Virus record (IMG/VR): IMGVR_UViG_3300025424_000296
Location: 32,001-96,000 of that record
Length of the DNA: 64,000 nucleotides
Direction: 5' to 3' (one strand)
From: a virus
Shown piece after piece: positions 88-43,650 of this stretch; position 1 is the first letter of the stretch; every line of letters starts with the position of its first letter. The notes beneath the pieces are model-generated. The model made no database searches and was not told the origin of the DNA. It saw only the letters and a program-made list of their open reading frames with translations. The translations under genes were made by a program, and so were the position numbers.

Positions 88-1059
88 ATGAATTACATAG
101 AACATTATAATAAATTAATTTTGCGAGGGAAAACCAGAGGTATTAAAAAAAGCTCTACGGTATATTATGAATTACATCATATAGTCCCTAAATGTTTAGG
201 TGGCACTAATAGTGATTCAAATCTTGTTTTATTAACACCAGAAGAACATTTTATTGCACATAAGTTATTGGTTAAAATTTATCCTAATAAAGGTAAATTA
301 ATCTATGCAGTTAATATGATGTGTGTAGGCAGAAATAATAAAATGTATGGTTGGCTTAAAAAGAAACTTCAGCAGGTGTTGAAAGATGATAAAGAAAGAT
401 CTGACAAAATTAGTAAATCTTTAACTGGTAGACATGTACCAGATTATATAGGAAGAAAAATTTCTAAATCTAATAAAGGTAGGATAATATCACAGTCAAC
501 AAGAGAGAAAATATCAAATAGTACTAAAGGTGTTTCTAAACCAACTAACTTTGGTAAAAAAATTAGTGCCAGATTAAAAGGTAGAAAACATAATGATTTA
601 CATCATAAAAAAGTTATAGATAGTAAATTAAGAAATGGTACATTACTGCAATCAAAATCTACAAAAGAAAAAATATCTAATAGCTTATCTAAATTGAAAT
701 GGTATAATAATGGGACAACCAACATAAGATCGTCTGTTAATCCAGGATGTGATTATGTACCTGGAAGACTGCCAATAGCAAAAAAGAAAAAAATAAATCA
801 AAAATATGATAAGGTTATTTTAGATACATCAACACTTCCTAAGTTCAAATATGATCATTACAAAAAATCTAACAACGGCAAACGAAATGGTGCATGGAAA
901 GGGTATATTGTTACCCCTGATGGAATTTTTGAATCATCTATGCAGGCAGCTATATATTATAGCCTTACAGACGGTACTATAAGAAATAGATGTTTAAGTG
1001 ATAATCCAAAATTTAAAGAATGGGTACAACTTACTAATTTAGGTAATGAAAATGAGTGA
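88..1059 (+). CDS. HNH homing endonuclease with NUMOD3-like DNA-binding repeats
   Basis: YELHHIVPKCLGG...SNLVLLTPEEHFIAHKLL HNH motif; repeated KISKS.KG units; very AT-rich; inserted between yeaG and yeaH. Confidence 0.88.
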   Translation: MNYIEHYNKLILRGKTRGIKKSSTVYYELHHIVPKCLGGTNSDSNLVLLTPEEHFIAHKLLVKIYPNKGKLIYAVNMMCVGRNNKMYGWLKKKLQQVLKDDKERSDKISKSLTGRHVPDYIGRKISKSNKGRIISQSTREKISNSTKGVSKPTNFGKKISARLKGRKHNDLHHKKVIDSKLRNGTLLQSKSTKEKISNSLSKLKWYNNGTTNIRSSVNPGCDYVPGRLPIAKKKKINQKYDKVILDTSTLPKFKYDHYKKSNNGKRNGAWKGYIVTPDGIFESSMQAAIYYSLTDGTIRNRCLSDNPKFKEWVQLTNLGNENE

Positions 1060-2338
1060 TTACCACATAATCGACCAACGTTCGAATCCTAAGGGTAAGA
1101 ACTTACCAAATCGTCAAAAGTTCCTTAAGAAGGTGCGCAAGCAGCTAACCGATCAGGTTAGGGGTGCCATTGGCAAACGTAAAATAACCGATAGCCGCGG
1201 AGAAGATATCAAAGTACCGGTAGACGGAATAAATGAACCCAGCTTTGATTATGACAGAACTACCGGCGAATGGGAAAGAATACTTCCTGGTAATAAAAAC
1301 TTCAGTGTGGGTGATCGAGTTAAAAAACCACCTAGCAGTGGAGGCAAAGGTGGCGGAAGCGGGTCTGGTGGTAACGGCGGTGAAGGTCAGGACGATTTCC
1401 GCTTTACTATAACCCGAGAAGAATATTTGGATATTGTGTTCGAAGATCTGGAATTGCCAGATATGATCAAACGTACCGAAAAGGCAGCTACAATATGGCA
1501 TAAGATACGTGCTGGATTTAAAACAGATGGCAACCCCAGTCAACTAGATCTTGTACGTAGCATGAAGAACAGTTTAGGACGTAGACTAGCACTACGCAAA
1601 CCGTTAGAACGCAAGGTTAATGAGATACAGTCGTTATTAGAGGACAGTGATAATCCAGAACTACTCTTAGAAGAAATTGAAAAGCTTCAGAAGAAACGCA
1701 GTAGTATTCCCTGGGTTGATCCTATGGACCTACGTTATCGTAGATTTGATAAGAACCCTGTGCCTAATAGTCAAGCAGTGATGTTTTGCTTGATGGATGT
1801 TAGTGGCAGTATGGGTCAACATGAAAAAGATATAGCCAAGCGATTTTATTTGTTGTTGTATTTGTTCCTGCAAAGAAAATATGAAAAGGTACAATTGGTA
1901 TTTGTACGTCACACAGAAGATGCTCGAGAAGTAGACGAAGATGAGTTTTTCAACAGTCAGGAAACAGGCGGAACTGTTGTAAGTAGTGGATTAGAATTGG
2001 TAAACAATATCATAAAAGAACGCTATCCGTTAGATGCCTGGAACATATATGTGGTGCAAGCCAGCGACGGTGATAATTATAGTCACGACAATCAGGTCTG
2101 TACAGAATTGTTAAATGAACTACTTCCCAAGGTTCAATATTATGTTTATGCTGAAGTCAAAAATTATAATAATTTGCGAGAAATATTCATGGTGAACCCC
2201 CGACATTCCGGTCTTTGGGAAATTATGAACAATCTGATGCCTCGTTATGAACAACTGGTGAGTGTCCAATTAACCGACGTAGAAAGTGTAGTACCCATAT
2301 TCAGAAGTGTATTTGCCCGGGAGAAGACCAATGGTTAA
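1046..2338 (+). CDS. yeaH: YeaH/YhbH (DUF444) vWA-domain protein
   Basis: IIDQRSNPKGKNLPNRQKF, PGNKNF..GD, AVMFCLMDVSGSM (MIDAS), QASDGDN motifs. Confidence 0.93.
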   Translation: MKMSDYHIIDQRSNPKGKNLPNRQKFLKKVRKQLTDQVRGAIGKRKITDSRGEDIKVPVDGINEPSFDYDRTTGEWERILPGNKNFSVGDRVKKPPSSGGKGGGSGSGGNGGEGQDDFRFTITREEYLDIVFEDLELPDMIKRTEKAATIWHKIRAGFKTDGNPSQLDLVRSMKNSLGRRLALRKPLERKVNEIQSLLEDSDNPELLLEEIEKLQKKRSSIPWVDPMDLRYRRFDKNPVPNSQAVMFCLMDVSGSMGQHEKDIAKRFYLLLYLFLQRKYEKVQLVFVRHTEDAREVDEDEFFNSQETGGTVVSSGLELVNNIIKERYPLDAWNIYVVQASDGDNYSHDNQVCTELLNELLPKVQYYVYAEVKNYNNLREIFMVNPRHSGLWEIMNNLMPRYEQLVSVQLTDVESVVPIFRSVFAREKTNG

Positions 2339-3809
2339 ACCTCTGTTCACAGGTTCTGAATGGGATTTTGAGTTATTAGACCGAGCAATGCGCGAGTGTG
2401 GCATTATAGCTAAAGAAGAATTAAGACTTGATACTTATAAAAATCAAATATGTGTAGTTAGTTCAGAACAAATGCTAGATGCTTATGCCAGCACAGGGCT
2501 TCCGGTTATGTATAAACATTGGAGTTTCGGTAAGAAATTCAGCCGAGAACGAGATCTATATCAAAAAGGAAAAAGAGGTCTTGCATATGAATTGGTATTA
2601 AACCTAGACCCTTGTATCAATTATTTAATGGAAGAGAATACAGCTTGTACTCAGGTCCTTGTTATTGCACATGCGGCGTATGGACACTGTCACGTGTTCA
2701 AAAACAATTATATGTTCAAGCAATGGACAGAAGCCGATTCAATGTTAGACTATCTAATCTTTGCACGTAATTATATAGTGCAATGCGAAGAACATTATGG
2801 TGAAGAAGCTGTTGAAGCGACATTAGATAGTGCTCATGCATTGATGATGAACGGTATTGATCGTTACAAGCGCCCACGTAAATTGTCCATGGTTGAAGAA
2901 CAGTTAAGACAGAAAGAGCGTACTGAATATCTTGAACGCACCGTTAACGATCTATGGCGTACATTACCCAGGACAGATAATGAAGATAACACTAATGAAG
3001 GTTATAAATTCCCAGCACAACCAGAAGAAAATATACTCTATTTCTTAGAAAAGAATAGCCCTGTATTAGAACCATGGCAGAGAGAAATACTTCGCATAGT
3101 ACGCAAACTTGCACAGTATTTCTATCCACAGTATCTTACCAAAATGTTAAACGAAGGCTGGGCCAGTTTTACACACTATTATATCATGAATAGATTACAT
3201 GATAAAGGCCTATTAACTGATGGTGCAATGTTAGAGTTCTTGAAATTACACACATCTGTACTTTATCAACCCGAGTACGATAGTCCATATTTCAGCGGGT
3301 TAAATCCCTACTATCTTGGCTTTGAAATATTCATGGACATCAAAAGAATGTGTGAAAATCCTGACGATGAGGATCGAGAACTATTCCCTGATATTGCGGG
3401 AAGTAACTGGGTTGATACCTGCTTAGATGCTGTGGCAAATTATCGCGATGAGAGTTTTGTACATCAATTCCTAAGTCCCAAAGTTGTACGCAAAATGAAA
3501 TTGTTCAAGGTTGTAGATGACAGCAGAGAAGATCATTTCGTGATTGATGCTATTCAAAACCGAGAAGGGTTCAAAGATATTCGCAGTAGACTAGCTCGTA
3601 GTTATGAGCTAGATGATTGGTGCCCTAAGGTAGAAGTATCTAATGCTGATATCAAAGGCGATAGAACATTAACATTAACCTATTACAGGGAGCGCGGTCG
3701 TAATATTGGAGGTAGCTGGCAGGTTATGCTATCTCATGTCCAAAGTCTATGGGGACATAAAGTCAAATTGGTTACTGCTAGAGGTAATACCATTGGCGAA
3801 ATAGCCTAA
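2331..3809 (+). CDS. ycgB: SpoVR/YcgB family protein
   Basis: LFTGSEWDF, YKHWSFGK, GLAYELV, AHAAYGH, TKMLNEGWASF; ATG at 2331 overlaps the yeaH stop. Confidence 0.93.
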   Translation: MVKPLFTGSEWDFELLDRAMRECGIIAKEELRLDTYKNQICVVSSEQMLDAYASTGLPVMYKHWSFGKKFSRERDLYQKGKRGLAYELVLNLDPCINYLMEENTACTQVLVIAHAAYGHCHVFKNNYMFKQWTEADSMLDYLIFARNYIVQCEEHYGEEAVEATLDSAHALMMNGIDRYKRPRKLSMVEEQLRQKERTEYLERTVNDLWRTLPRTDNEDNTNEGYKFPAQPEENILYFLEKNSPVLEPWQREILRIVRKLAQYFYPQYLTKMLNEGWASFTHYYIMNRLHDKGLLTDGAMLEFLKLHTSVLYQPEYDSPYFSGLNPYYLGFEIFMDIKRMCENPDDEDRELFPDIAGSNWVDTCLDAVANYRDESFVHQFLSPKVVRKMKLFKVVDDSREDHFVIDAIQNREGFKDIRSRLARSYELDDWCPKVEVSNADIKGDRTLTLTYYRERGRNIGGSWQVMLSHVQSLWGHKVKLVTARGNTIGEIA

Positions 3810-21526: not shown

Positions 21527-22981
21527 ATGATATATGACCTACTAATTGTCGGCGGCGGAATTAACGGCTGTGCTATAGCAAGAGATGCAGCAGGTCGTGG
21601 TTTACGAGTTCTGTTAGTCGAACAAAACGACCTAGCAAGTGCTACTTCTTCAGCATCAACAAAACTAATACACGGCGGCTTACGCTATCTTGAAACATAC
21701 GATTTCAGATTGGTACACGAAGCACTAGCAGAACGTGAAATATTACTGGCTAACGCACCTCACATCATTTGGCCCTTGAACTTTGTACTACCTCATGCAA
21801 AAGGACTGCGTCCAAAATGGATGATCAAACTTGGTCTTTGGTTATATGATCATCTAGCAACACGTAAAACATTACCCAAGTCTAAAATGGTAATGCTCCA
21901 GGGTAACTGGATGGGCAAACCTCTTAAGAAAGAATACGAAATAGGGTTTACCTACGCAGATTGCTGGGTAGATGATGCTAGACTAGTTGTGCTTAATGCA
22001 GTTAATGCTAGAGAATATGGAGCGGAAATATGTGTAGGTACTCGTCTATTGAATGCTACGTCTCAAAATGGATCGTGGACTGCAACACTTAGTAATAGAC
22101 GAGAAGTTCAATCACGAGTACTGATTAATGCAGCAGGACCGTGGGTGTCTGAAGTACTTGATAATATAGAAATAAAATCTCATAAACATGTGAAATTAGT
22201 CAAGGGATCGCATATTGTAGTACATAGACAGTATCCGGGTAGTCATGCTTATATACTACAGAACAATGACGGACGTATTGCATTTGCTATTCCCTATGAA
22301 GGGGCATATACATTAATTGGTACAACTGACTTTGTTCATAATGATGCACCCGGACCTGTTGCTATCAGTGATGTTGAAACTGATTATTTGATTGAGTTAG
22401 TTAATCACTTTTGGGACAAACCGATCGCTCACAGTGATATAGTCTGGAGTTATGCAGGATTGAGACCACTATATGATGACGGTTCGGTAAATGCATCAGT
22501 TGTAACTAGAGATTATGCGTTTGACCTTAATACAGATTCTGCACCGGTATTATCTATATTTGGTGGTAAGATTACAACTGCTCGTAGATTGGCAGAACAT
22601 GCACTGGACGAGTTAGGCAAGTTTCTACCCAGTTGCGGAAACAAATGGACCAAGTCAGCAGCATTACCTGGCGGCGGTATAGATTTTGATAGATTTGTTA
22701 GACAACTACGTGAAGATAAACCTCTGATAGATTTTCACTTGTTATACAGACTTGCTCGTGCCTATGGTACACGAGCGTATGACCTATTAGGTGATGCTAC
22801 AACAAATGAGGATCTTGGACGAGACTTTGGGCATGGATTGACACAAGCCGAAGTTGATTATTTAATTGCAAATGAGTGGGCAAGATCTGCTGACGATATT
22901 CTATGGAGACGCAGTAAATTAGGATTGCACATGACTCAAGACGAGCAAGCAGTATTACGTGAATTTGTCAACAAAGAATAG
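21527..22981 (+). CDS. glpD: FAD-dependent glycerol-3-phosphate dehydrogenase
   Basis: GGGING, ATSSASTKLIHGGLRYLE, VDDARLV, VKGSHIV, GGKITT, WRRSKLG. Confidence 0.95.
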   Translation: MIYDLLIVGGGINGCAIARDAAGRGLRVLLVEQNDLASATSSASTKLIHGGLRYLETYDFRLVHEALAEREILLANAPHIIWPLNFVLPHAKGLRPKWMIKLGLWLYDHLATRKTLPKSKMVMLQGNWMGKPLKKEYEIGFTYADCWVDDARLVVLNAVNAREYGAEICVGTRLLNATSQNGSWTATLSNRREVQSRVLINAAGPWVSEVLDNIEIKSHKHVKLVKGSHIVVHRQYPGSHAYILQNNDGRIAFAIPYEGAYTLIGTTDFVHNDAPGPVAISDVETDYLIELVNHFWDKPIAHSDIVWSYAGLRPLYDDGSVNASVVTRDYAFDLNTDSAPVLSIFGGKITTARRLAEHALDELGKFLPSCGNKWTKSAALPGGGIDFDRFVRQLREDKPLIDFHLLYRLARAYGTRAYDLLGDATTNEDLGRDFGHGLTQAEVDYLIANEWARSADDILWRRSKLGLHMTQDEQAVLREFVNKE

Positions 22982-23036
22982 TTGACATTAAGTTATAAGG
23001 CACTATATTAAACATATAAAAGAAAGGAAACCGACT

Positions 23037-23225
23037 ATGAATAGATTCTTTATTACAACAACTCTAATGGTCGTACTTGCTACAACTTCGATCCCTAACT
23101 ATCTAGGATCTCTGATCGATGGAAATAGTGGTGGCTATCGATACGAAGCCAATGCTTCTACAATTAATAGAAAGCTGTCTTGTTTTACTCGTAGCTGGGA
23201 TGGACACACTACAGACTGTCTCTGA
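23037..23225 (+). CDS. Short ORF, possible leader peptide before tRNA-Asn
   Basis: TTGACA promoter at 22982, AAGGA RBS; stop overlaps a CTCTG/CAGAG-TTTT hairpin. Confidence 0.45.
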   Translation: MNRFFITTTLMVVLATTSIPNYLGSLIDGNSGGYRYEANASTINRKLSCFTRSWDGHTTDCL

Positions 23226-23272
23226 GGTTAACAGAGTTTTAAAAGATGCTAGTATATATGAGTAATAAATGT

Positions 23273-23355
23273 TTCCTTGTAGCTCAGTTGGTAAAGTAGT
23301 GACTGTTAATCACTTAATCACTTAGTCGTTGGTTCGAGTCCAACCGGGGGAGACA
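23273..23355 (+). pseudogene. tRNA-Asn(GTT) pseudogene
   Basis: Cloverleaf with CTGTTAA loop, but 8-nt TTAATCAC duplication, weakened D and acceptor stems, ACA instead of CCA. Confidence 0.75.
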
Positions 23356-28175: not shown

Positions 28176-29735
28176 ATGCAAATTAATAGTATAATAATTG
28201 TAGGCGGGGGATCATCAGGATGGATGACTGCTGCTCTAATTTCAAAATTACTACCTGAAATTAATTTATCACTAGTAGAATCTAAACATATACCTATCAT
28301 CGGCGTCGGGGAATCAACTTTATCAAGTATTAACTCATATTTGCGAAGACTTGAAATACATGATGATCAATGGATGAGTAAATGTAATGCTACTTATAAA
28401 ACATCTATTAGATTTACTAATTTTTTTGAACAGGGTAAATCATATCATGACGTATTAAAATATCTAGAGGTTCCATTTCCCATACCAGGTAATTTTGGAA
28501 TTACAATATTTAATCTATTATGCCTTAGATTTCCTGACGAATTTAGACCAGAAGATTTACCTAAATTTGCAGATGACACTTGGCAAATGATAGAAAATAA
28601 CAGGTACACCGATGATCCTGGTCCAATGAGTTGGGATACTAAAAAAGAAAAAGCATATCATTTTGATGCTTATAAATTTGGATTGGTATTAAAAGATTTA
28701 TTAGCCATTCCGAATGGAACAACACACATACAAGACGATGTATTAGAAGTACAAACTGATAAATTTGGTGTTAGCGGACTTGTGACTAAAGAACATGGAA
28801 TATTAACAGCCGACTTATACATAGACTGTACAGGATTTAAGTCGTTATTGCTAGGTGAAACATTGGATACCCCTTTTAATAGGTTTGATGATACGCTGTT
28901 AAATAATAAAGCTGTAGTTACCAACATACCATATCTTGATAAAGTTAATGAATTAACCAGTTATACTGATTGTACAACCATGCCAAATGGTTGGCTATGG
29001 ACTATCCCTACATGGGATAAACTCGGAACAGGATATGTTTATTCAGATAAATTTGTTGATAATGAAACTGCAAAAAAACAATTTATAGACACTCTGAGAT
29101 CTCGATATGGAGACAGAGTTAACGAATGTGAATTCCGTTACATTGAATTCACTCCCGGTGTGAGGGATATACCATGGAATAAAAATGTCGTCGGTATTGG
29201 ACTAAGTTGTGGATTTATAGAACCACTTAGATCAACCGGACTTCAGGTTACACATGATATGGCAATAACATTAACTGATATATTAATTAAAAACAGTAGG
29301 AAAATAGGTAGTATTAATAAAGAAATTTATAATTTTAATGTTAAAGTACTCTTGCACAATGCTAGAGATTTTGTATCTTTACATTACGCATTATCTAAAA
29401 GATGCGACACAGATTATTGGAAACACGCAGTAAATGATGTAAGTTATTTTAAGGATAATGATCTTTTTAAACAATTTGCATATTCTGGAACTAGTAATGT
29501 ATTGAATAAATTTAACAGTAATGATCAAATGTTTAGAACGTATGCTAGTTCTGGATATAATAGAATGACAGAAGCTGATTTTAAAATTTTATTAGACGAT
29601 AATCCTGATTTAGATAGAGATTTACAAACTGTTAAAAAGATATGGACAAGACGGCATCAAGAAATCGGAGCATATGTAAAAACGTTGCCTACTACAGCTG
29701 AATTTTTAAAGAAAAATATATATAATACCGATTGA
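28176..29735 (+). CDS. Tryptophan halogenase-like flavoprotein
   Basis: GGGSSG, IGVGEST, AYHFDA, YIDCTGF, GWLWTIP (WxWxIP), GFIEPL.STG. Confidence 0.88.
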   Translation: MQINSIIIVGGGSSGWMTAALISKLLPEINLSLVESKHIPIIGVGESTLSSINSYLRRLEIHDDQWMSKCNATYKTSIRFTNFFEQGKSYHDVLKYLEVPFPIPGNFGITIFNLLCLRFPDEFRPEDLPKFADDTWQMIENNRYTDDPGPMSWDTKKEKAYHFDAYKFGLVLKDLLAIPNGTTHIQDDVLEVQTDKFGVSGLVTKEHGILTADLYIDCTGFKSLLLGETLDTPFNRFDDTLLNNKAVVTNIPYLDKVNELTSYTDCTTMPNGWLWTIPTWDKLGTGYVYSDKFVDNETAKKQFIDTLRSRYGDRVNECEFRYIEFTPGVRDIPWNKNVVGIGLSCGFIEPLRSTGLQVTHDMAITLTDILIKNSRKIGSINKEIYNFNVKVLLHNARDFVSLHYALSKRCDTDYWKHAVNDVSYFKDNDLFKQFAYSGTSNVLNKFNSNDQMFRTYASSGYNRMTEADFKILLDDNPDLDRDLQTVKKIWTRRHQEIGAYVKTLPTTAEFLKKNIYNTD

Positions 29736-29770
29736 CTTTATCAACAAAGACTATATAGTATAAAAACGTT

Positions 29771-29860
29771 ATGAGAAAGAACAAAACAGTGGGCTACTGG
29801 CTAAATTTTATTTGTTTGCAACTAACCTGGATTGAACCAGGGGAGGGGCCTATCGTATAG
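29771..29860 (+). CDS. Putative attenuator leader peptide (29 aa)
   Basis: MRKNKTVGYWLNFICLQLTWIEPGEGPIV*, directly after the TTGACT promoter at 29732; stop lies within the antiterminator arm. Confidence 0.6.
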   Translation: MRKNKTVGYWLNFICLQLTWIEPGEGPIV

Positions 29861-29926
29861 TGTGATGTGATGACATTATACGACTTTTAGGCCCTTGGAA
29901 CAGACGTGTTTCAAGGGTTTTTGTTT
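29846..29926 (+). promoter_or_regulatory. Overlapping antiterminator (29846-29894) and intrinsic terminator (29890-29926)
   Basis: GGGCCTA/TAGGCCC plus TCGTATAGTGT/ACATTATACGA, versus CCCTTGGAACA/TGTTTCAAGGG followed by TTTTTGTTT; GGCCC is shared. Confidence 0.75.
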
Positions 29927-29944
29927 ATCAAAGGAGAAACTGAA

Positions 29945-30100
29945 ATGAAATGGTCCAAGTTGATTCAACGAACATACAAAGCTATAATCAAGGGCGATGT
30001 AGAAAAAGAAGCCAAACTATGGCATAGAGCTCTTAAGAAAAATATGAAAGCGCATGCCAAAGGTAAAAAGAGAAAACCAGGCGATACTGTTATACGTTAA
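29945..30100 (+). CDS. Small basic protein
   Basis: AAGGAG RBS; 51-aa Lys-rich ORF directly before tRNA-Glu. Confidence 0.6.
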   Translation: MKWSKLIQRTYKAIIKGDVEKEAKLWHRALKKNMKAHAKGKKRKPGDTVIR

Positions 30101-30110
30101 AATCCAGTAT

Positions 30111-30187
30111 GCTCCCATAGATTACGTTGGTTAGATCGTTGCCCTTTCACGGCAAAGAACCCGGATCGTCGCCGGGTGGGAGCACCA
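30111..30187 (+). tRNA. tRNA-Glu(TTC)
   Basis: GCTCCCA/TGGGAGC acceptor, TTGCC-CTTTCAC-GGCAA anticodon arm, encoded CCA. Confidence 0.9.
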
Positions 30188-30201
30188 TTTAAAAGTTATA
30201 A

Positions 30202-30278
30202 TGGCGTGTAGCTCGGTTGGTCAGAGCATTCGACTGATAATCGAAAGGTCGGTAGTTCAAATCTACCCATGCCAACCA
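30202..30278 (+). tRNA. tRNA-Ile(GAT)
   Basis: TTCGA-CTGATAA-TCGAA anticodon arm, GTTCAAATC T-loop, CCA. Confidence 0.93.
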
Positions 30279-31112: not shown

Positions 31113-31176
31113 ATCCTTAATTTATTGACTTTGTAACTTTTATTACAAAATAATAAATGATCAAGGAGGAAAGACC

Positions 31177-31368
31177 ATGAATAAGATTTTAATCACACTA
31201 ATAGTATCACTATTTGCTACATCTGTTGTGGCACTAACCGTCATACCGGCAGCAGTAAAAACTTCAAATGATGTTGCAGTTTCCAAACCAGCTGCTAAAT
31301 CCCACACAGGAACTTGGTTGCCACCAAAAGAAATACAAGACAAGGTTGCAAAAGAAAAACAAAAATAA
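31177..31368 (+). CDS. Small secreted protein
   Basis: AGGAGG RBS; signal peptide. Confidence 0.6.
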   Translation: MNKILITLIVSLFATSVVALTVIPAAVKTSNDVAVSKPAAKSHTGTWLPPKEIQDKVAKEKQK

Positions 31369-31382
31369 TATACTTTAAAGAT

Positions 31383-31458
31383 GCTGGTGTAGCTCAGTTG
31401 ATAGAGCGCGGCATTAGTAATGCCGATGTCGGGAGTTTGAACCTCTCCACCAGCACCA
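31383..31458 (+). tRNA. tRNA-Thr(AGT)
   Basis: GCTGGTG/CACCAGC acceptor, CGGCA-TTAGTAA-TGCCG anticodon arm, CCA; D-loop and T-loop slightly non-canonical. Confidence 0.8.
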
Positions 31459-31463
31459 CCTTA

Positions 31464-31590
31464 GCCCTTGTAGCCCAACTGGCAGAGGCAGGAGACTTAC
31501 GAGAAAGGGTTAAAGCCCATAACGGTGCGATTCCGGAATCTCGGAGATAAAATCTCCCAAGTATCAGTTCGAATCTGATCAAGGGCACCA
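31464..31590 (+). tRNA. tRNA-Leu(TAA) interrupted by a 50-nt insert (31500-31549) in the anticodon loop
   Basis: GCCCTTG/CAAGGGC acceptor, GGAGA-CTTA[insert]AAA-TCTCC, ATCAG-TTCGAAT-CTGAT T-arm, CCA. Confidence 0.85.
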
Positions 31591-31877: not shown

Positions 31878-32234
31878 ATGATTACAACAACTATATTACT
31901 ATTGGGCACAGTCGTATGGCTTATTCTAACTATAATTGTTTTTGGTTTAACTGGATTTGATAGAATTTTGGCATGCTTGCAAATGTGGTTTGATAGAAAA
32001 TATTGGACCGGTTATAATCTAGTTGAAGCAACAAGTTATGCAGCTAAGGCTATTGTAATTGTCCCTGGATTAATATGGGGCATACAATTTTGGTGGTTTT
32101 ATATATTAACCTTAATAACAAGTTTAAGTTTAATTTGGTCTAGTAATCGAAAGTTATTACCTACTCTTGTTGTATTTAACACAGTCTGGGTGTGGGTTAG
32201 TGTAATGGCTATTGCAAAATATTTTTTCTCATAA
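31878..32234 (+). CDS. Multi-pass membrane protein
   Basis: About 4 hydrophobic segments; leaderless-type promoter. Confidence 0.7.
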   Translation: MITTTILLLGTVVWLILTIIVFGLTGFDRILACLQMWFDRKYWTGYNLVEATSYAAKAIVIVPGLIWGIQFWWFYILTLITSLSLIWSSNRKLLPTLVVFNTVWVWVSVMAIAKYFFS

Positions 32235-33601: not shown

Positions 33602-34093
33602 ATGATTAAATTATCTAAATTTGTAGTAGCTGCTATTGTTGTTATTGCAATGTGTGGTCCTGACACAGCATCGGCAGATCCAATTACAGATCTTTTTGAC
33701 GGAGTTTTTCATCAAACTCGCAATCAACCTGTTGCCAATAATGGTCGTCGAGGACATCATTCAGTAACAGCAGAGCCTGCTGATAATAATTGGGTTGCTA
33801 CTACATCTTCACATAGCGGGTCGCGCATGGTTGCTTCATACTACGGACACGGTGAGCGTTTAAGTCGTCATACTGCTAGCGGTCAGCGTTTTAATCCTCA
33901 TGCCATGACAGCAGCTCATCGTACATATCCATTTGGAACACGACTACATGTTTGTCACCGCGGGTGTGTCACTGTAGTAGTCAATGACCGCGGGCCGTTT
34001 GTTCGAGGACGTCATTTAGATTTATCATATGGTGCTGCTCGTGCAATTGGTATGACCAGTACTTCAACAATTACTGTGCAACGATTAGATTGA
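33602..34093 (+). CDS. RlpA-like (DPBB) lytic transglycosylase
   Basis: ASYYG, TASGQRF, TAAHRTYPFGT, VNDRGPF, LDLSYGAA. Confidence 0.9.
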   Translation: MIKLSKFVVAAIVVIAMCGPDTASADPITDLFDGVFHQTRNQPVANNGRRGHHSVTAEPADNNWVATTSSHSGSRMVASYYGHGERLSRHTASGQRFNPHAMTAAHRTYPFGTRLHVCHRGCVTVVVNDRGPFVRGRHLDLSYGAARAIGMTSTSTITVQRLD

Positions 34094-34153
34094 TATAAAA
34101 TAACCAATATGGTGGGACTTGATTTTCCCACCATATTGCTCTATAATAGCATG

Positions 34154-34588
34154 ATGAGACACTTACATGTTATAATAGATATTAATGATCCATTAACACA
34201 GTTAATCAAAGATGATCCTGTTCGTCCTGAAATACCTGTAGAACAACGTATTAGTAACACCAAAGAAGTACATGTTCTATTAGAAGATGATACCCCATTA
34301 GCTGTTGTTTGTGTAAGTTATCAAGACTTTGTACCAAAAATAACTGAAGAATTATTTGGATCAAACAAACCAACTGTTGCTGTATTTTATACTATTTGGA
34401 GTTATGGGTCAGGTGCTGCTAAAGAACTTTTGTCAAGATCTACTGATTACATTAAGAACAGTAGAACAACTATTTCCAGATTTGTAACCCTCAGTCCAAA
34501 AACTCAAATGGCTGAAAAATTTCATATGGGCAATGGTGCTGTATTACTAGAAAATAATGCTGATACTGTGAATTATGAATATCTATAA
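34154..34588 (+). CDS. Conserved phage hypothetical protein
   Basis: DDPVRP, FYTIWSY, VTLSPKT motifs; TATAAT 6 nt before ATG. Confidence 0.7.
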   Translation: MRHLHVIIDINDPLTQLIKDDPVRPEIPVEQRISNTKEVHVLLEDDTPLAVVCVSYQDFVPKITEELFGSNKPTVAVFYTIWSYGSGAAKELLSRSTDYIKNSRTTISRFVTLSPKTQMAEKFHMGNGAVLLENNADTVNYEYL

Positions 34589-34952: not shown

Positions 34953-35015
34953 GTTTTAAACTCGGTGGATTATAAATATGGTGTGTTTATAATAAACACT
35001 GTAAGGAGAATTACC

Positions 35016-35261
35016 ATGAATTTAGAGGGATATAAAACATATATAGTTGCGGCCCTCATGGCTGCATTGCCAACTATAACAACCGCTGTTAATCATATTG
35101 ATTGGGTTACAGTACTAACTGGATTGGGTGTTCAAAAGGAGTGGATCGTACCACTTGCAAGTTTCGCAGCAGCAGTGGTTATGGCCATAATGAGAAAAAT
35201 TACTCAGGCTACGACTGTTAAGACTGCATTAGAAACAGAGCCTCCAAAAAAGCAGGGTTGA
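35016..35261 (+). CDS. Small late membrane protein, holin-like
   Basis: TATAAATA at 34971, AAGGAG RBS, GYKTYIVA, two hydrophobic segments. Confidence 0.55.
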   Translation: MNLEGYKTYIVAALMAALPTITTAVNHIDWVTVLTGLGVQKEWIVPLASFAAAVVMAIMRKITQATTVKTALETEPPKKQG

Positions 35262-35332
35262 CAAAACGCTAAAAAACACTATATTTAAACTTTAGCATTG
35301 GCATGATGATGAGTCTGTAAGACCTGTGTTAT

Positions 35333-35407
35333 GTTCCGGTGCCAGAGTAGTTATGGAGCAGACTGCAAATCTGTTTTAGGTGGGTGCAAGTCCCTCCCGG
35401 AACTCCA
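35333..35407 (+). tRNA. tRNA-Cys(GCA)
   Basis: GTTCCGG/CCGGAAC acceptor, GCAGA-CTGCAAA-TCTGT anticodon arm, U73, CCA. Confidence 0.85.
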
Positions 35408-35414
35408 AATTTAT

Positions 35415-35491
35415 AGCGGGGTAGAGCAGAAGCAGCTCGCTTGGTTCATACCCAAGAGGTCGTGGTAGAGCATTTCCCACCCCCGCTTCCA
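35415..35491 (+). tRNA. tRNA-Met(CAT), initiator-like, with aberrant T-loop
   Basis: AGCGGGG/CCCCGCT acceptor, CTTGG-TTCATAC-CCAAG, CCA; T-loop reads TAGAGCATTTC. Confidence 0.7.
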
Positions 35492-35625: not shown

Positions 35626-35649
35626 TACACGGTGATAATGGAGAGTAAC

Positions 35650-37347
35650 ATGGAATACAAGGCCCCAGTTGATAGTGTTTTATTTCTACTACGAGATGTG
35701 TTAAAATTTGATAGTGATATTACTGAAGCTATTTTAACTGAGGCTGCTAAATTAGCCGAGGAATCAATTGCTCCTACTAATCAACAGGGCGACGAAGCGG
35801 GATGTTTCTTAGTCAATGGACCAGGATTAGAACGCCCAGAAGTGGTAACACCGGCATCATTTAAAGAACCATGGAAGCAATTTTGCAAGGGTGGTTGGCT
35901 GGGATTATCAGTACCCGAAGAGTATGGCGGACAGGGATTACCATATACCATTGCTTGTGTTATTAATGAGTTTGTATCCAGCGCCAATATGGCTTTAAGT
36001 CTTTATCCCGGTCTGACTCGCGGTGCTATTCAAGCATTGCTAGAGGTAGCAACAGAGGAACAGAAACAACAATTTATTCCCAAAATGGCCACCGGTGAGT
36101 GGACAGGTACTATGAACCTAACAGAACCGCACTGTGGAACTGATCTGGGATTGCTTAAAACCAAAGCAACAGTTAGTGAGAATGGTACATATAACATAAC
36201 TGGACAAAAGATCTTTATCAGTTGTGGCGAACACGATCTCAGCAAGAATATCATTCACCTTGTGCTGGCAAGAGTAGAAGGTGATCAACCGGGGACAAAA
36301 GGTATTAGTTTATTCATTGTTCCCAAAATGATTGATGATCAGTATAATGCAGTATCGTGTGGCTCTATTGAACATAAGATGGGTATTCACGGGTCAAGTA
36401 CCTGTGTTATGAACTATGACGGGGCCGTTGGGTATCTTGTAGGTGAACGTGGTAAAGGTTTAAATGCCATGTTTATCATGATGAATGAAGCGCGACTAGG
36501 AGTTGCAGTACAGGGATTATCACAAAGTGAATTGGCTTACCAAAATGCTGTTGCATATGCTAAAGATAGACTCCAGGGGCGTTCGCTTACTGGTGCAAAG
36601 TTTCCGGACCGAGCAGCCGATCCTATTATTGTTCACCCTGATGTGCGTCGTATGCTTATGGATATTAAGGCTGTAAATGAAGCTGGACGTCTTTTGATAT
36701 TAGAAGCAGCTTTGCTATGTGAAGATAAGTCAGATGCTGCACAAGACAGATTAGGATTGATGACTCCGATTCTTAAAGGTCTTCTTACAGATTTGGGATT
36801 CGAAAATGCTGTAAAGGCACAGCAGGTATTCGGCGGACATGGTTATATTCGAGAATGGGGTATGGAACAAATTGTTCGTGACGCTCGTATTGCTCAAATA
36901 TACGAGGGTGCCAATGGTGTTCAAGCTATGGATTTAATTGGGCGTAAACTTCCAAAGAATATGGGCCGTGCAGTTAAGAACTTTTTTGATGAAAATGAAA
37001 AGATTCTCATCGACTTCATGCTTGATCCGCTTACAACAGTATCTCCTATAGCGACAGATGTATATGGAGCATTAAACGACCTAAAGGCAGCAACTAAATG
37101 GTTGATGCAAAATGCACTTAAAAATCCCAATAATGCTGGATCTGCTGCTTATGATTACATGTACTTGTTTGGTATTGTGTTGCTGGGACTTGCGCATGTT
37201 AAGATAGTTGCTGCCACTGATGATGCGGATAGACACATAACAGCCAAATATTTCATTGAACGTATTTTACCAGAAACTAAATTACGTCTCTCCCGTATCC
37301 AAGCAGGATCAGGTACAATGATGTCATTGAGTGACACTGGTTTTTGA
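35650..37347 (+). CDS. Acyl-CoA dehydrogenase
   Basis: GTMNLTEPHCGTDLG, GQKIFIS, EHKMGIHGS, QVFGGHGYI.E, IYEGANGVQA. Confidence 0.95.
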   Translation: MEYKAPVDSVLFLLRDVLKFDSDITEAILTEAAKLAEESIAPTNQQGDEAGCFLVNGPGLERPEVVTPASFKEPWKQFCKGGWLGLSVPEEYGGQGLPYTIACVINEFVSSANMALSLYPGLTRGAIQALLEVATEEQKQQFIPKMATGEWTGTMNLTEPHCGTDLGLLKTKATVSENGTYNITGQKIFISCGEHDLSKNIIHLVLARVEGDQPGTKGISLFIVPKMIDDQYNAVSCGSIEHKMGIHGSSTCVMNYDGAVGYLVGERGKGLNAMFIMMNEARLGVAVQGLSQSELAYQNAVAYAKDRLQGRSLTGAKFPDRAADPIIVHPDVRRMLMDIKAVNEAGRLLILEAALLCEDKSDAAQDRLGLMTPILKGLLTDLGFENAVKAQQVFGGHGYIREWGMEQIVRDARIAQIYEGANGVQAMDLIGRKLPKNMGRAVKNFFDENEKILIDFMLDPLTTVSPIATDVYGALNDLKAATKWLMQNALKNPNNAGSAAYDYMYLFGIVLLGLAHVKIVAATDDADRHITAKYFIERILPETKLRLSRIQAGSGTMMSLSDTGF

Positions 37348-41367: not shown

Positions 41368-43650
41368 TTAAATTTCTCCGTTATTTACTGTATCCAGTAA
41401 TTCAAACTCTTCTGTATCTGACAGCTCAGCTGTTTCCATATATTCGAATTCTAATTGATCATCGTTAACATGTACTGTTACAGCACCGCCATTTTTAAGA
41501 CGTCCAAATAGCATTTCTTTGGCAAGAGGTTTCTTGATATTTTCCTGTATAACTCTGGCTAGTGGCCTTGCACCCATGTTGCGATCAAAACCTCTTTTGA
41601 TAAGCCATTCTTTAGTAACTGAATCTAGTACAATATTAACTCTCTTTTTGCTACTGAGTTCGTTCATTTGATTTATAAATTTGTCAATGATTTTATTCAT
41701 GTTTTCTTTAGATAGCTTGTTGAATCTCACAATACCATCCAGTCTGTTACGGAATTCTGGTTTAAAGTAACTGTTGATAGCATTAATGTCTTCGTCTGTG
41801 CGCTCTGTACTACCAAATCCTATAGCAGATCGTTCCATATCTGCTGCTCCGAGATTACTGGTAAAGATAACGATAGCATGTCTAGCACTTGCAACTTTAC
41901 CATTTTGGCCAGTTATGATACCACTGTCCATGACTTGTAAGAAAATGTTATAAACATCCGGATGTGCTTTTTCAATTTCGTCAAATAGTAATACACAGTG
42001 CGGATTTGTTTCTAGTGTATTAATCAATATGCCAGATCCAGCAGACCCGTCACTATAGCCCACGTAGCCCGGAGGAGATCCAATCAGTTTGCTAACAGCA
42101 TGTCTTTCTTGGAACTCACTCATATCAAATCGCACAAATTCTACACCCAGACTTTTGGACAGTTGTTTTGCTAATTCTGTTTTACCTACCCCACTAGGAC
42201 CGCTGAATAAAAAAGATCCAACAGTTTTATCTGCTTCTCTGAGTCCACTTCTGCTGAGCCAGATCATGCTTGACAGTGTTTCTACTGCGTCATCTTGTCC
42301 AAATATGGCACCTTTGAGATCTGCATCAAGTTTTGCAAGCTTATCAGCTTCGGAAGTTTTAATTGTAGCCACTGGAATTTTAGCTACTCGACCAACTTCA
42401 GCTTCAATTTCTTTTTTGGTAATATTTTTAATTCTTTCATATTCTGGCCTAATTTTTTGCCAAGCAGCAGAACTATCAATTATATCAATGGCTTTATCTG
42501 GTAAGAATTTATCATGAATATGCTTAGCTGTTAACTCTACAGCAGCATCAAGTGCTGCGATATCATAGGTCACATCGTGATATTCTTCATAGTATTTGGC
42601 AACACCTCTGAGAATACGTTTAGCATCTTCGATACTGGGTTCATGAATATTTAATTTTTGAAAACGACGTACAAGAGCACGATCTTTTTCAAAATGTTTA
42701 CGGTATTCATCCATTGTTGTTGAGCCAATACAATGAATTTCACCTCTACTCAGAGGCGGCTTCAACATGTTAGCTGCATCAAGTGACCCATTGCCACCGC
42801 CGGCATTACCGGCGCCCATGATCATGTGAATTTCGTCAATGAACATAACAGCGTCTGGTAGACTACAAAATGCCTTAATAATGGCTTTCATACGTTCTTC
42901 AAAATCGCCGCGGAATTTAGTACCAGCTACTAGTGTACTGATATCCACACTCCAAATGGTTTTATTTAATAATGTTTCTGGAACTGATTTTTCTGTAATC
43001 CTTTTGGCAAGACCTTCGATTATCTGAGTCTTACCTACGCCTGCATCGCCAGTCATTACTACATTATGTTTGTTACGACGTGCTAAAATCTGCGTAATCT
43101 GTTCAACTTCTCGTTCACGTCCAATAAGCGGATCAATTTTTCCGTTTTCAGCCTTGCGATTGAGGTTAATGCAGAAGGTTTCTAGTGTTTCTATTGCTTC
43201 GGTTAGATCCATCTTTTCAGAATCTGCAGCTTGACTTTTATTGATAATATCTATGATAGCTTCTTTACTAGGGCCGTGCTTGTCTAGAAAGTATGCTGCA
43301 TGACTATCTGTTGTTCCATATATAGCCAGTAATAAATCCACCGGTCCAACTTCGTTTCGACCACTGAATATGCTCTGAGTTTTGGCTTTCTTAACCACAT
43401 TCATTAATAATTGAGTGTGTCTTGGACTAGAAGAATTATCTTGTACTATCACATGATTATCCGGCTCATCTAAATAATCAAATGTGTCTTTGGCAACTGC
43501 TTCTGGATTACCATTGGCTTTTTTCATTAATTTAACTAATTCTTGATCATCTAATAATGCAGCCAGTAGATGTTCAAGTGTCACCAATTCATGATGACGA
43601 GCAGAAGCTAATTGATAACTATGCTGGACAGTCTGCTCAAAGGTTTTCAT
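41368..43650 (-). CDS. clpA: ATP-dependent Clp protease ATP-binding subunit ClpA
   Basis: ClpN domain; GDAGVGKT and GPSGVGKT Walker A motifs; GTKFRGDFEER; RFDMSEF; PPGYVG; no ClpB M-domain. Confidence 0.93.
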   Translation of the reverse strand: MKTFEQTVQHSYQLASARHHELVTLEHLLAALLDDQELVKLMKKANGNPEAVAKDTFDYLDEPDNHVIVQDNSSSPRHTQLLMNVVKKAKTQSIFSGRNEVGPVDLLLAIYGTTDSHAAYFLDKHGPSKEAIIDIINKSQAADSEKMDLTEAIETLETFCINLNRKAENGKIDPLIGREREVEQITQILARRNKHNVVMTGDAGVGKTQIIEGLAKRITEKSVPETLLNKTIWSVDISTLVAGTKFRGDFEERMKAIIKAFCSLPDAVMFIDEIHMIMGAGNAGGGNGSLDAANMLKPPLSRGEIHCIGSTTMDEYRKHFEKDRALVRRFQKLNIHEPSIEDAKRILRGVAKYYEEYHDVTYDIAALDAAVELTAKHIHDKFLPDKAIDIIDSSAAWQKIRPEYERIKNITKKEIEAEVGRVAKIPVATIKTSEADKLAKLDADLKGAIFGQDDAVETLSSMIWLSRSGLREADKTVGSFLFSGPSGVGKTELAKQLSKSLGVEFVRFDMSEFQERHAVSKLIGSPPGYVGYSDGSAGSGILINTLETNPHCVLLFDEIEKAHPDVYNIFLQVMDSGIITGQNGKVASARHAIVIFTSNLGAADMERSAIGFGSTERTDEDINAINSYFKPEFRNRLDGIVRFNKLSKENMNKIIDKFINQMNELSSKKRVNIVLDSVTKEWLIKRGFDRNMGARPLARVIQENIKKPLAKEMLFGRLKNGGAVTVHVNDDQLEFEYMETAELSDTEEFELLDTVNNGEI

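Follow-up and report, generated by a model that had tools for sequence, protein, structure and literature searches.

The trp, his, leu, thr, ilv and pheA operons of enterobacteria carry leader-peptide attenuators, which are represented in Rfam as leader families, and leaders that respond to ribosome stalling, e.g., those of Bacillus bmrB-bmrCD and vmlR and of Listeria lmo0919, were reportedly described as attenuators by Dar et al. in 2016. In phages T4 and T5, the tRNA regions consist of tRNA genes interspersed with early promoters, small open reading frames (ORFs), terminators and small RNAs of unclear role. We know of no leader-peptide attenuator described in these regions, and a literature search found no attenuation or other regulatory element of phage tRNA genes. 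Here, we analyzed a stretch of 64,000 nucleotides (nt) of viral DNA (IMG/VR record IMGVR_UViG_3300025424_000296, positions 32,001 to 96,000; referred to as the window), for which an initial annotation had proposed a ribosome-dependent transcription attenuator in front of two tRNA genes. From the sequences of the window and its relatives, positions 29732 to 29926 probably form a ribosome-dependent leader-peptide transcription attenuator, a member of a family gating the tRNA genes of uncultured jumbo phages of about 350 to 400 kb. Judged on the window alone, before relatives were available, the ribosome model had seemed improbable. The leader and the genes behind it comprise the following features.

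29732 to 29759, + strand: sigma-70-type promoter, with TTGACT (29732-29737), a 16-nt spacer and TATAGT (29754-29759); 10/12 match
29771 to 29860, + strand: leader ORF, 29 codons plus TAG, 16 different amino acids, peptide not conserved, no Shine-Dalgarno sequence
29826 to 29841, + strand: hairpin P1, CCUGG/CCAGG with a 6-nt loop, inside the leader ORF; candidate pause or synchronizing hairpin
29845 to 29848, + strand: G-run, 5' strand of the predicted antiterminator base helix, 10 to 13 nt upstream of the stop codon
29846 to 29894, + strand: hairpin P2, predicted antiterminator, 20 bp, -26.6 kcal/mol, z-score of -6.7
29891 to 29926, + strand: intrinsic terminator, 12-bp stem (29891-29902 with 29907-29918), loop GACG, then UUUUUGUUU
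29931 to 29936, + strand: Shine-Dalgarno sequence AAGGAG, 8 nt upstream of the next ORF
29945 to 30100, + strand: gene for a basic two-helix protein of 51 amino acids (aa), the proposed first gated gene
30111 to 30187, + strand: tRNA-Glu (UUC), found by ARAGORN and Rfam, 45.3 bits
30202 to 30278, + strand: tRNA-Ile (GAU), found by ARAGORN and Rfam, 69.6 bits

Every feature listed in the initial annotation (promoter-like site, ORF, hairpins, basic ORF and tRNAs) was found in the sequence, including the 29-codon leader ORF with its 16 different amino acids. The hairpin said to hold the stop codon of this ORF was located correctly but has 20 bp instead of 18, and the proposed competition between this hairpin and the terminator holds over 4 shared nt (G29891 to C29894) rather than the 7 that had been implied. 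The base helix of P2 pairs 29846-29852 with 29888-29894, thereby taking in the shared nucleotides, and the stop codon (TAG, 29858-29860) lies within the 5' arm of P2. Transcription is predicted to start at about 29766, and the -35 hexamer contains the stop codon of the upstream halogenase gene. The record from which the window was taken is 113 kb long and rated 28% complete, corresponding to a genome of about 400 kb, and it encodes rIIA, a DUF444/SpoVR pair, a ClpB-like ATPase and collagen-repeat tail fibers. Judged from these genes, the source is a tailed jumbo phage of bacteria, and the logic of bacterial promoters, terminators and ribosomes therefore applies.

In common with the enterobacterial attenuators, the phage leader has a promoter-proximal short ORF followed by antiterminator and terminator hairpins that share a strand, and an intrinsic terminator just ahead of the first structural gene; in both, a ribosome at the stop codon would favor termination, and a hairpin within the ORF could be a pause site. 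The annotation had described this as trp/his attenuator logic without codon runs for a single amino acid, a description that was borne out. Indeed, the tandem or enriched cognate codons of trp/his-type attenuators were absent and the peptides differ among relatives, unlike in the enterobacterial systems. Further differences are that P1 does not compete, such that a lack of translation should give read-through and not superattenuation, that the overlap comprises only 3 to 5 nt, and that the cargo is a small basic protein together with viral tRNA genes.

By analogy, the phage leader appears closest in logic to the stalling-responsive leaders of some antibiotic resistance genes, in which ribosome progress through an arbitrary short ORF likewise picks the fold and a general slowing switches the operon on. 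Those leaders, compared here by logic alone, differ in responding to specific ribosome-targeting drugs and in controlling bacterial efflux or ribosome protection genes. As in the pyrBI and pyrE leaders of E. coli, the readout would be the distance between ribosome and polymerase at an intrinsic terminator and not a specific amino acid. In pyrBI and pyrE, however, a close ribosome blocks the terminator, so that translation leads to read-through; the polarity of the phage leader would be the opposite, because its stop codon lies 28 to 37 nt before the 5' arm of the terminator. The T4 and T5 tRNA regions are similar in that phage tRNA islands are mixed with promoters, small ORFs, terminators and small RNAs.

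Conservation of the leader in related phages

Close relatives of the phage were not found when GenBank phages were searched with blastn, which matched tRNA-Ile only, nor did an exact-motif scan and a tRNA-Glu motif scan of IMG/VR, scans with the family 17 glycosyltransferase (GT17) and rIIA proteins, or a search of GTDB genomes yield any. The best homologues of the adjacent halogenase were 44 to 45% identical (GenBank phages, IMG/VR, one metagenome scan and GTDB), and the GT17 protein is known only as its own cluster, on 9 contigs. An exhaustive protein search with the 51-aa ORF returned three homologues of equal length at 44 to 50% identity, and an IMG/VR scan with an alignment of these identified 27 loci, 14 of which (L169 to L182) hold full-length forms. 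All 14 have tRNA arrays 199 to 1944 nt downstream on the same strand, and all 14 have a leader like that of the window upstream of the 51-aa gene. Since their records are fragments of 48 to 113 kb rated 14 to 31% complete, they represent jumbo phages of similar size. Each of four such records searched in full contained one copy.

A covariance model built from the window alone detected all eight relatives that, with the window, make up group A, and a second-round model gave E-values of 1e-8 to 1e-15. The covariance search added a variant in two loci (L043 and L083) with an ORF of 46 to 48 codons and tRNA arrays beyond it; this variant keeps the logic of G-run, P2, C-run and terminator, and its downstream gene differs. 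In L083 (3349-3730), the gene past the terminator resembles an HNH endonuclease (CxxC ... CHRRIH) inserted before the tRNA array. With the two variants, the loci in other jumbo phage fragments number 16, and eleven distinct leaders were compared, the nine of group A and the two long-ORF variants. Two further matches of the second-round model (L193:4266-4346 and L014:7572-7654) resembled ordinary gene-end terminators and were set aside.

The arrangement of ORF and antiterminator proposed for the window was conserved in the relatives. Group A shares the order promoter, open frame of 23 to 29 codons, P1, G-run, P2, terminator, Shine-Dalgarno sequence and 51-aa gene. The promoter reads TTGACA-N17-TATAAATA in 7 of the 8 relatives (the -35 element of L180 falls outside the aligned stretch), and the promoter of the window aligns with it. 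P2 spans 45 to 52 nt in the relatives, with 18 to 20 bp and z-scores of -4.1 to -5.9, and a conserved motif, UGAUGUGA, is present in its apical stem. At least four sequence versions of P1 occur, those of the relatives being CUGGUAU/AUACCAG, CCAGAA/UUCUGG and GGGA/UCCC. All members have a GC-rich terminator stem and U-tract between the leader ORF and the next gene, whose ATG lies 23 to 32 nt past the start of the U-tract (74 nt in L083). The 5' arm of the terminator starts with a C-run that also closes P2, and this C-run, only 3 to 5 nt across the members, can pair with either G-run.

Each of the 11 distinct leaders keeps a single frame open from close to the -10 box until a stop codon in the P2 5' arm, and both remaining frames are each interrupted by several stops. 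The leader peptides are unrelated except where the RNA helices constrain the sequence. A complete ATG ORF of at least 29 codons in the window spacer had a P value of about 0.04; among nine sequences, an ATG ORF of at least 23 codons ending in the observed 8-nt slot had P values of 0.01 to 0.04 each under dinucleotide shuffling, the product of which is 10^-14.7 if they are independent and about 10^-8 if the independent lineages number perhaps five. L171 differs from L170 by a 1-nt insertion that removes the UAA, and a UGA two codons farther on closes the frame, still within the P2 arm; the same P2 stem shows a compensatory change from A-U to G-C. Most relatives carry AAGGA or GAGAG upstream of the leader start. 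The leader ORF is, as far as these comparisons indicate, selected as an open frame and not as a protein. At least one Trp codon occurs in all 11 leader peptides, and Cys occurs in 10 of them; the UGG of the group A leaders is part of the P1 stem (CUGG/CCAG), a possible reason for the shared Trp codon. The Trp codon was not supported as a specific sensor, its distance to the G-run being inconsistent and, in L170 to L172, only 9 nt, inside the footprint of a stalled ribosome.

The position of the stop codon, a feature that the annotation had suggested comparing among relatives, proved to be constrained, at 28 to 37 nt from the C-run in 11 of 11 leaders, and the last G of the G-run lies 9 to 15 nt upstream of the stop in group A and 19 to 21 nt upstream in the long-ORF variant. 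Since the protection by bacterial ribosomes extends for roughly 15 nt in both directions from the A site, a ribosome terminating at the stop would cover the 5' arm of P2 together with the G-run or its edge and leave the C-run free. When folded up to the terminator, all 11 leaders had 4 to 12 nt of the terminator 5' arm paired upstream, with a gain of -4.0 to -14.4 kcal/mol from antiterminator pairing in the relatives. Covariation was also seen in the helices, with changes on both sides in 27 of 33 helix pairs and with 93.8% of cells paired (compared to 64.6% in column shuffles and 35 to 48% with slid partners), although these figures come from a model-fitted alignment. The same helices were obtained from folds of the individual sequences made without any alignment. 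An alignment by MAFFT only was too poor for RNAalifold beyond the terminator, and because the model-fitted alignment misregisters P1 (L170 to L172) and some C-runs, the antiterminator helix was judged from the individual folds. The conserved frame, the position of the stop codon, the three-way complementarity of G-run, C-run and G-run, and the downstream tRNA arrays support, in silico, the attenuator interpretation.

Competing folds, proposed mechanism and alternatives

The window leader as a whole folds with a z-score of -4.4; its 5' 80 nt are unstructured (z-score of -1.0), and the stable hairpins lie 3' of these. The terminator (-17 to -18 kcal/mol; z-score of -5.0) ranks second in strength among those of the 113-kb record and first on the + strand, and no other strong one lies inside a long codirectional gene block. 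The Shine-Dalgarno sequence of the next gene follows 5 nt behind it, which leaves no room for a further promoter between them. In the minimum free energy (MFE) fold of the full leader both hairpins are kept, with the 4 shared nt assigned to the terminator. The annotation had called for co-transcriptional folding of this region, and folds of successive prefixes agreed with its proposal: P2 holds the shared nucleotides until the 3' arm of the terminator emerges, whereupon the terminator is favored by about 2 kcal/mol. Allowing the basal 5 nt of the terminator to pair upstream gained -9.2 kcal/mol, whereas the same gain at 31 other terminator-like hairpins of the genome averaged -2.3 kcal/mol and reached -6 kcal/mol or lower at only 2. 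A second antiterminator register (29837-29843 with 29892-29898) was dismissed at an ensemble probability of 0. In these folds, P1 shares no nucleotides with the G-run helix, and there is no competing anti-antiterminator (1:2) helix.

The effect of a ribosome was modeled by masking a 29-nt footprint codon by codon along the window leader. In the absence of a ribosome, antiterminator and terminator were formed at about 50:50. With the A site at codons 13 to 21, the antiterminator base had a probability of 0.55 to 0.98, and with the A site at the stop codon or anywhere from codon 23 onward, the terminator base had a probability of 0.95 to 1.0. The proposal that a ribosome at the stop leads to termination and an upstream stall to antitermination was thus reproduced in silico. 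The accompanying hint that Ile and Glu codons near the end of the ORF might be meaningful was not upheld, as the two together make up 5 of 29 codons, which is about background and no enrichment, and those at codons 22, 25 and 28 sit where a stalled ribosome favors termination, not read-through.

On this basis, we propose that transcription begins at the strong early-type promoter, that the initial 160 nt of the RNA code for an arbitrary short peptide, and that P1 within the ORF would pause RNA polymerase until a ribosome arrives, synchronizing the two. On reaching the stop codon, which lies in the P2 5' arm, a ribosome would cover or unwind this arm and the G-run, and the C-run thus freed would close the base of the terminator, ending transcription at about 29925. 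Should no ribosome arrive in time, through failed initiation, scarcity, or a stall in the first two-thirds of the ORF, P2 would form down to its G-run:C-run base and strip the terminator of 3 to 4 basal G:C pairs beside the U-tract. Base pairs adjacent to the U-tract are critical for intrinsic terminators, as established work has shown. The polymerase would then read into the gene for the 51-aa basic protein and the tRNA-Glu and tRNA-Ile genes. What we infer beyond the anatomy, conservation, covariation, geometry and energetics seen in silico is that the leader is translated and that the polymerase pauses, as well as how large the effect is and which physiological signal is read.

Because there is no run of cognate codons and P1 does not compete, so that no translation would mean ON, the leader would be a sensor of translation capacity. 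More tentatively, then, leaders of this family may act as translation-capacity sensors that keep the tRNA array and the 51-aa protein off while translation is prompt and turn them on when initiation or elongation falters, be it for a shortage of ribosomes, depletion of tRNAs or a defense that cleaves tRNAs. The unit would in that case couple the supply of phage tRNAs inversely to translation capacity. A role in sensing tRNA depletion or anticodon nucleases, as the annotation had envisaged, is conceivable.

Several observations weigh against an attenuator read by ribosomes. The leader AUG of the window is preceded by no Shine-Dalgarno sequence, with only about 5 nt between it and the predicted transcription start, while a Shine-Dalgarno-like motif precedes 30 of 72 (42%) long ORFs versus a background of 2 of 72, and every neighboring small ORF has a strong one. 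The codon usage of the leader is between that of coding and spurious ORFs, although this is expected of a leader peptide. The hairpins of the window share only 4 nt, and nucleation of the terminator is free to occur in its upper 8 bp. In the long-ORF variants, the distance of 19 to 23 nt from the G-run to the downstream stop places the G-run at the margin of the ribosome footprint or outside it. The covariation count derives from few, related sequences in an alignment fitted to structure and is thus supportive and not decisive. Moreover, in full-length leaders the terminator state is equal or favored by up to 10 kcal/mol; the choice between the folds must therefore be kinetic, as it is in classical attenuators. 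Read-through would thus rest on kinetic trapping, from which branch migration could quickly release the RNA, and antitermination may be partial.

A rival reading is a switch operated by a factor, in which a protein, a tRNA or a ligand stabilizes P1/P2 or the terminator and the short ORF is secondary. The protein could be the cotranscribed 51-aa basic protein, acting in autoregulation, or an antiterminator of the phage or host. We consider such a factor-dependent attenuator or riboswitch unlikely, despite an architecture that is conserved and bistable, a P1 and a P2 of about 20 bp that exceed the needs of a 4-nt competition, a conserved motif in the apical stem of P2, and a basic protein that is always adjacent in group A. 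It leaves unexplained the open frame and the fixed position of its stop in the face of a drifting peptide; moreover, the leader occurs without the 51-aa gene (L043 and L083) and the gene without the leader (L183 to L195). Little conserved unpaired sequence of the kind that aptamers show was found, and no Rfam family matched. When Rfam models (leaders, T-box, riboswitches, tmRNA and put RNA) were searched, only tRNAs passed the gathering score, the best leader match being His_leader at 17.6 bits versus a threshold of 49.

It also seems improbable that the hairpin at 29891 is a constitutive, partly leaky terminator that ends the halogenase operon and insulates the tRNA module, with a short ORF that has no regulatory role and with P2 as a 3'-end stabilizer or RNase III processing site. 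Phage terminators inside codirectional blocks are often leaky, P2 is a near-perfect 20-bp duplex that the MFE fold retains together with the terminator, and the window leader has no Shine-Dalgarno sequence; yet the relatives have a consensus promoter directly upstream, so that about 150 nt separate the terminator from a promoter of its own, and its antiterminator pairing energy is an outlier among the 31 terminators of the same genome. Nor would a leaky terminator explain why the relatives conserve an open frame, the place of its stop codon and the pairing of G-run with C-run.

The transcript of about 160 nt from promoter to terminator might instead act chiefly in trans as a small RNA, with the downstream genes expressed by incidental read-through, akin to the stable small RNAs of the T4 tRNA region or the attenuator-derived rnTrpL. 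An own promoter, a strong terminator, an unstructured 5' 80 nt and stable 3' hairpins would suit such an RNA, as would the transfer-messenger RNA (tmRNA) gene at the equivalent position of a related contig (L082), and liberated attenuator RNAs can act in trans (PMC6614838). This reading is very doubtful, since the 5' region is the least conserved whereas the seed of a small RNA is expected to be conserved, a search of the rest of the 113-kb record revealed no significant complementarity, and the reading offers no explanation for the conserved open frame. A trans role of the terminated 160-nt RNA could coexist with attenuation. A degenerate tRNA or two-piece tmRNA as in L082 (no ARAGORN or Rfam match and no acceptor complement), a repeat element (the leader is unique in the 113-kb record) and a T-box (no model match and a bulge on the wrong side) were rejected.

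Putatively gated genes, surroundings and implications

The 51-aa protein belongs to a conserved, phage-only family found beside phage tRNA or tmRNA genes and marked by the motifs MKW(S/P)KL and KALKKN. It is modeled as a two-helix hairpin with a basic tail (mean predicted local distance difference test score, 82); Pfam, PHROGs, the ESM Atlas and a Foldseek search of the PDB gave nothing usable for it, and GTDB held no relative. Family forms of 51 to 52 aa precede tRNA arrays, while forms of 43 aa (KEKKLWFKALKKSLKHKHT) mostly follow a gene with a metallophosphatase-like C terminus, and some precede tmRNA. In L082 (3014-3397), a permuted two-piece tmRNA gene of the alphaproteobacterial type with the tag ANDNDASFGAYALAA (Rfam tmRNA_permuted, 91.5 bits; alpha_tmRNA, 81.6 bits) immediately follows the halogenase gene and precedes tRNA-Arg, the position of the attenuator in the window. 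L183, L188 and L194 also carry such a tmRNA, about 500 to 820 nt past the small ORF.

With regard to the tRNAs of the window, the T-loop of tRNA-Glu is unusual, reading AUCGUCG in place of UUCRANY, and a tRNA-Thr at 31383-31458 has an AGU anticodon (A34). Rfam identified two further tRNAs that ARAGORN missed, one at 31464-31587 (44 bits) that spans 124 nt with an insertion of about 50 nt, and one at 35415-35488 (42 bits) that directly follows tRNA-Cys.

The attenuator locus sits within a long gene block on the + strand of the region, where 118 sigma-70-like promoter sites were observed versus 84.9 +/- 10.4 in shuffles. Promoters similar to that of the leader precede other modules of the record in which a small ORF is joined to tRNA genes. 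Such modules, with a promoter, a small ORF with a Shine-Dalgarno sequence, and a tRNA, were found at 22982-23354, 31125-31458 and 35258-35488. Also delimited as repeated units at 22982-23354, 31125-31458 and 34997-35488, they consist of a sigma-70-like promoter, a small ORF and then one or two tRNA genes; the ORFs encode about 60 to 80 aa behind a strong Shine-Dalgarno sequence, two have hydrophobic N termini, and two of the promoters have CACTATATT in common at -10. Of all terminator-like hairpins in the record, the strongest (34105-34138, - strand, -22.2 kcal/mol, 13 bp) falls at the junction of the + strand ORFs 33602-34093 and 34109-34588. The window also holds auxiliary genes that are unusual for phages, namely, a DUF444 and SpoVR pair, a GlpD-like FAD oxidoreductase, a flavoenzyme of the tryptophan halogenase family, an acyl-CoA dehydrogenase and a ClpB-like ATPase (1046-3809, 21527-22981, 28176-29735, 35632-37347 and 41368-43650). 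A halogenase adjoins the tRNA island in several distant phages as well (L043, L082 and L083).

Why and when phages use tRNA genes of their own is a long-standing question, and the current ideas are compensation for codon usage, replacement of degraded host tRNAs, and escape from anticodon nucleases. The finding marks an unstudied family of 51-aa basic proteins that travels with phage tRNA and tmRNA genes. In the phage leader, the classical attenuator would take a two-state form that is ON when nothing is translated. If the leaders do act as translation-capacity sensors, no earlier cis-regulatory switch would have been described for viral tRNA genes, and translation would feed back homeostatically on tRNA supply. 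Were transcription of a tRNA array to hinge on translation of the leader peptide, its expression would respond to translation stress instead of running constitutively, which would favor the replacement and counterdefense ideas and make them testable with simple reporter constructs.

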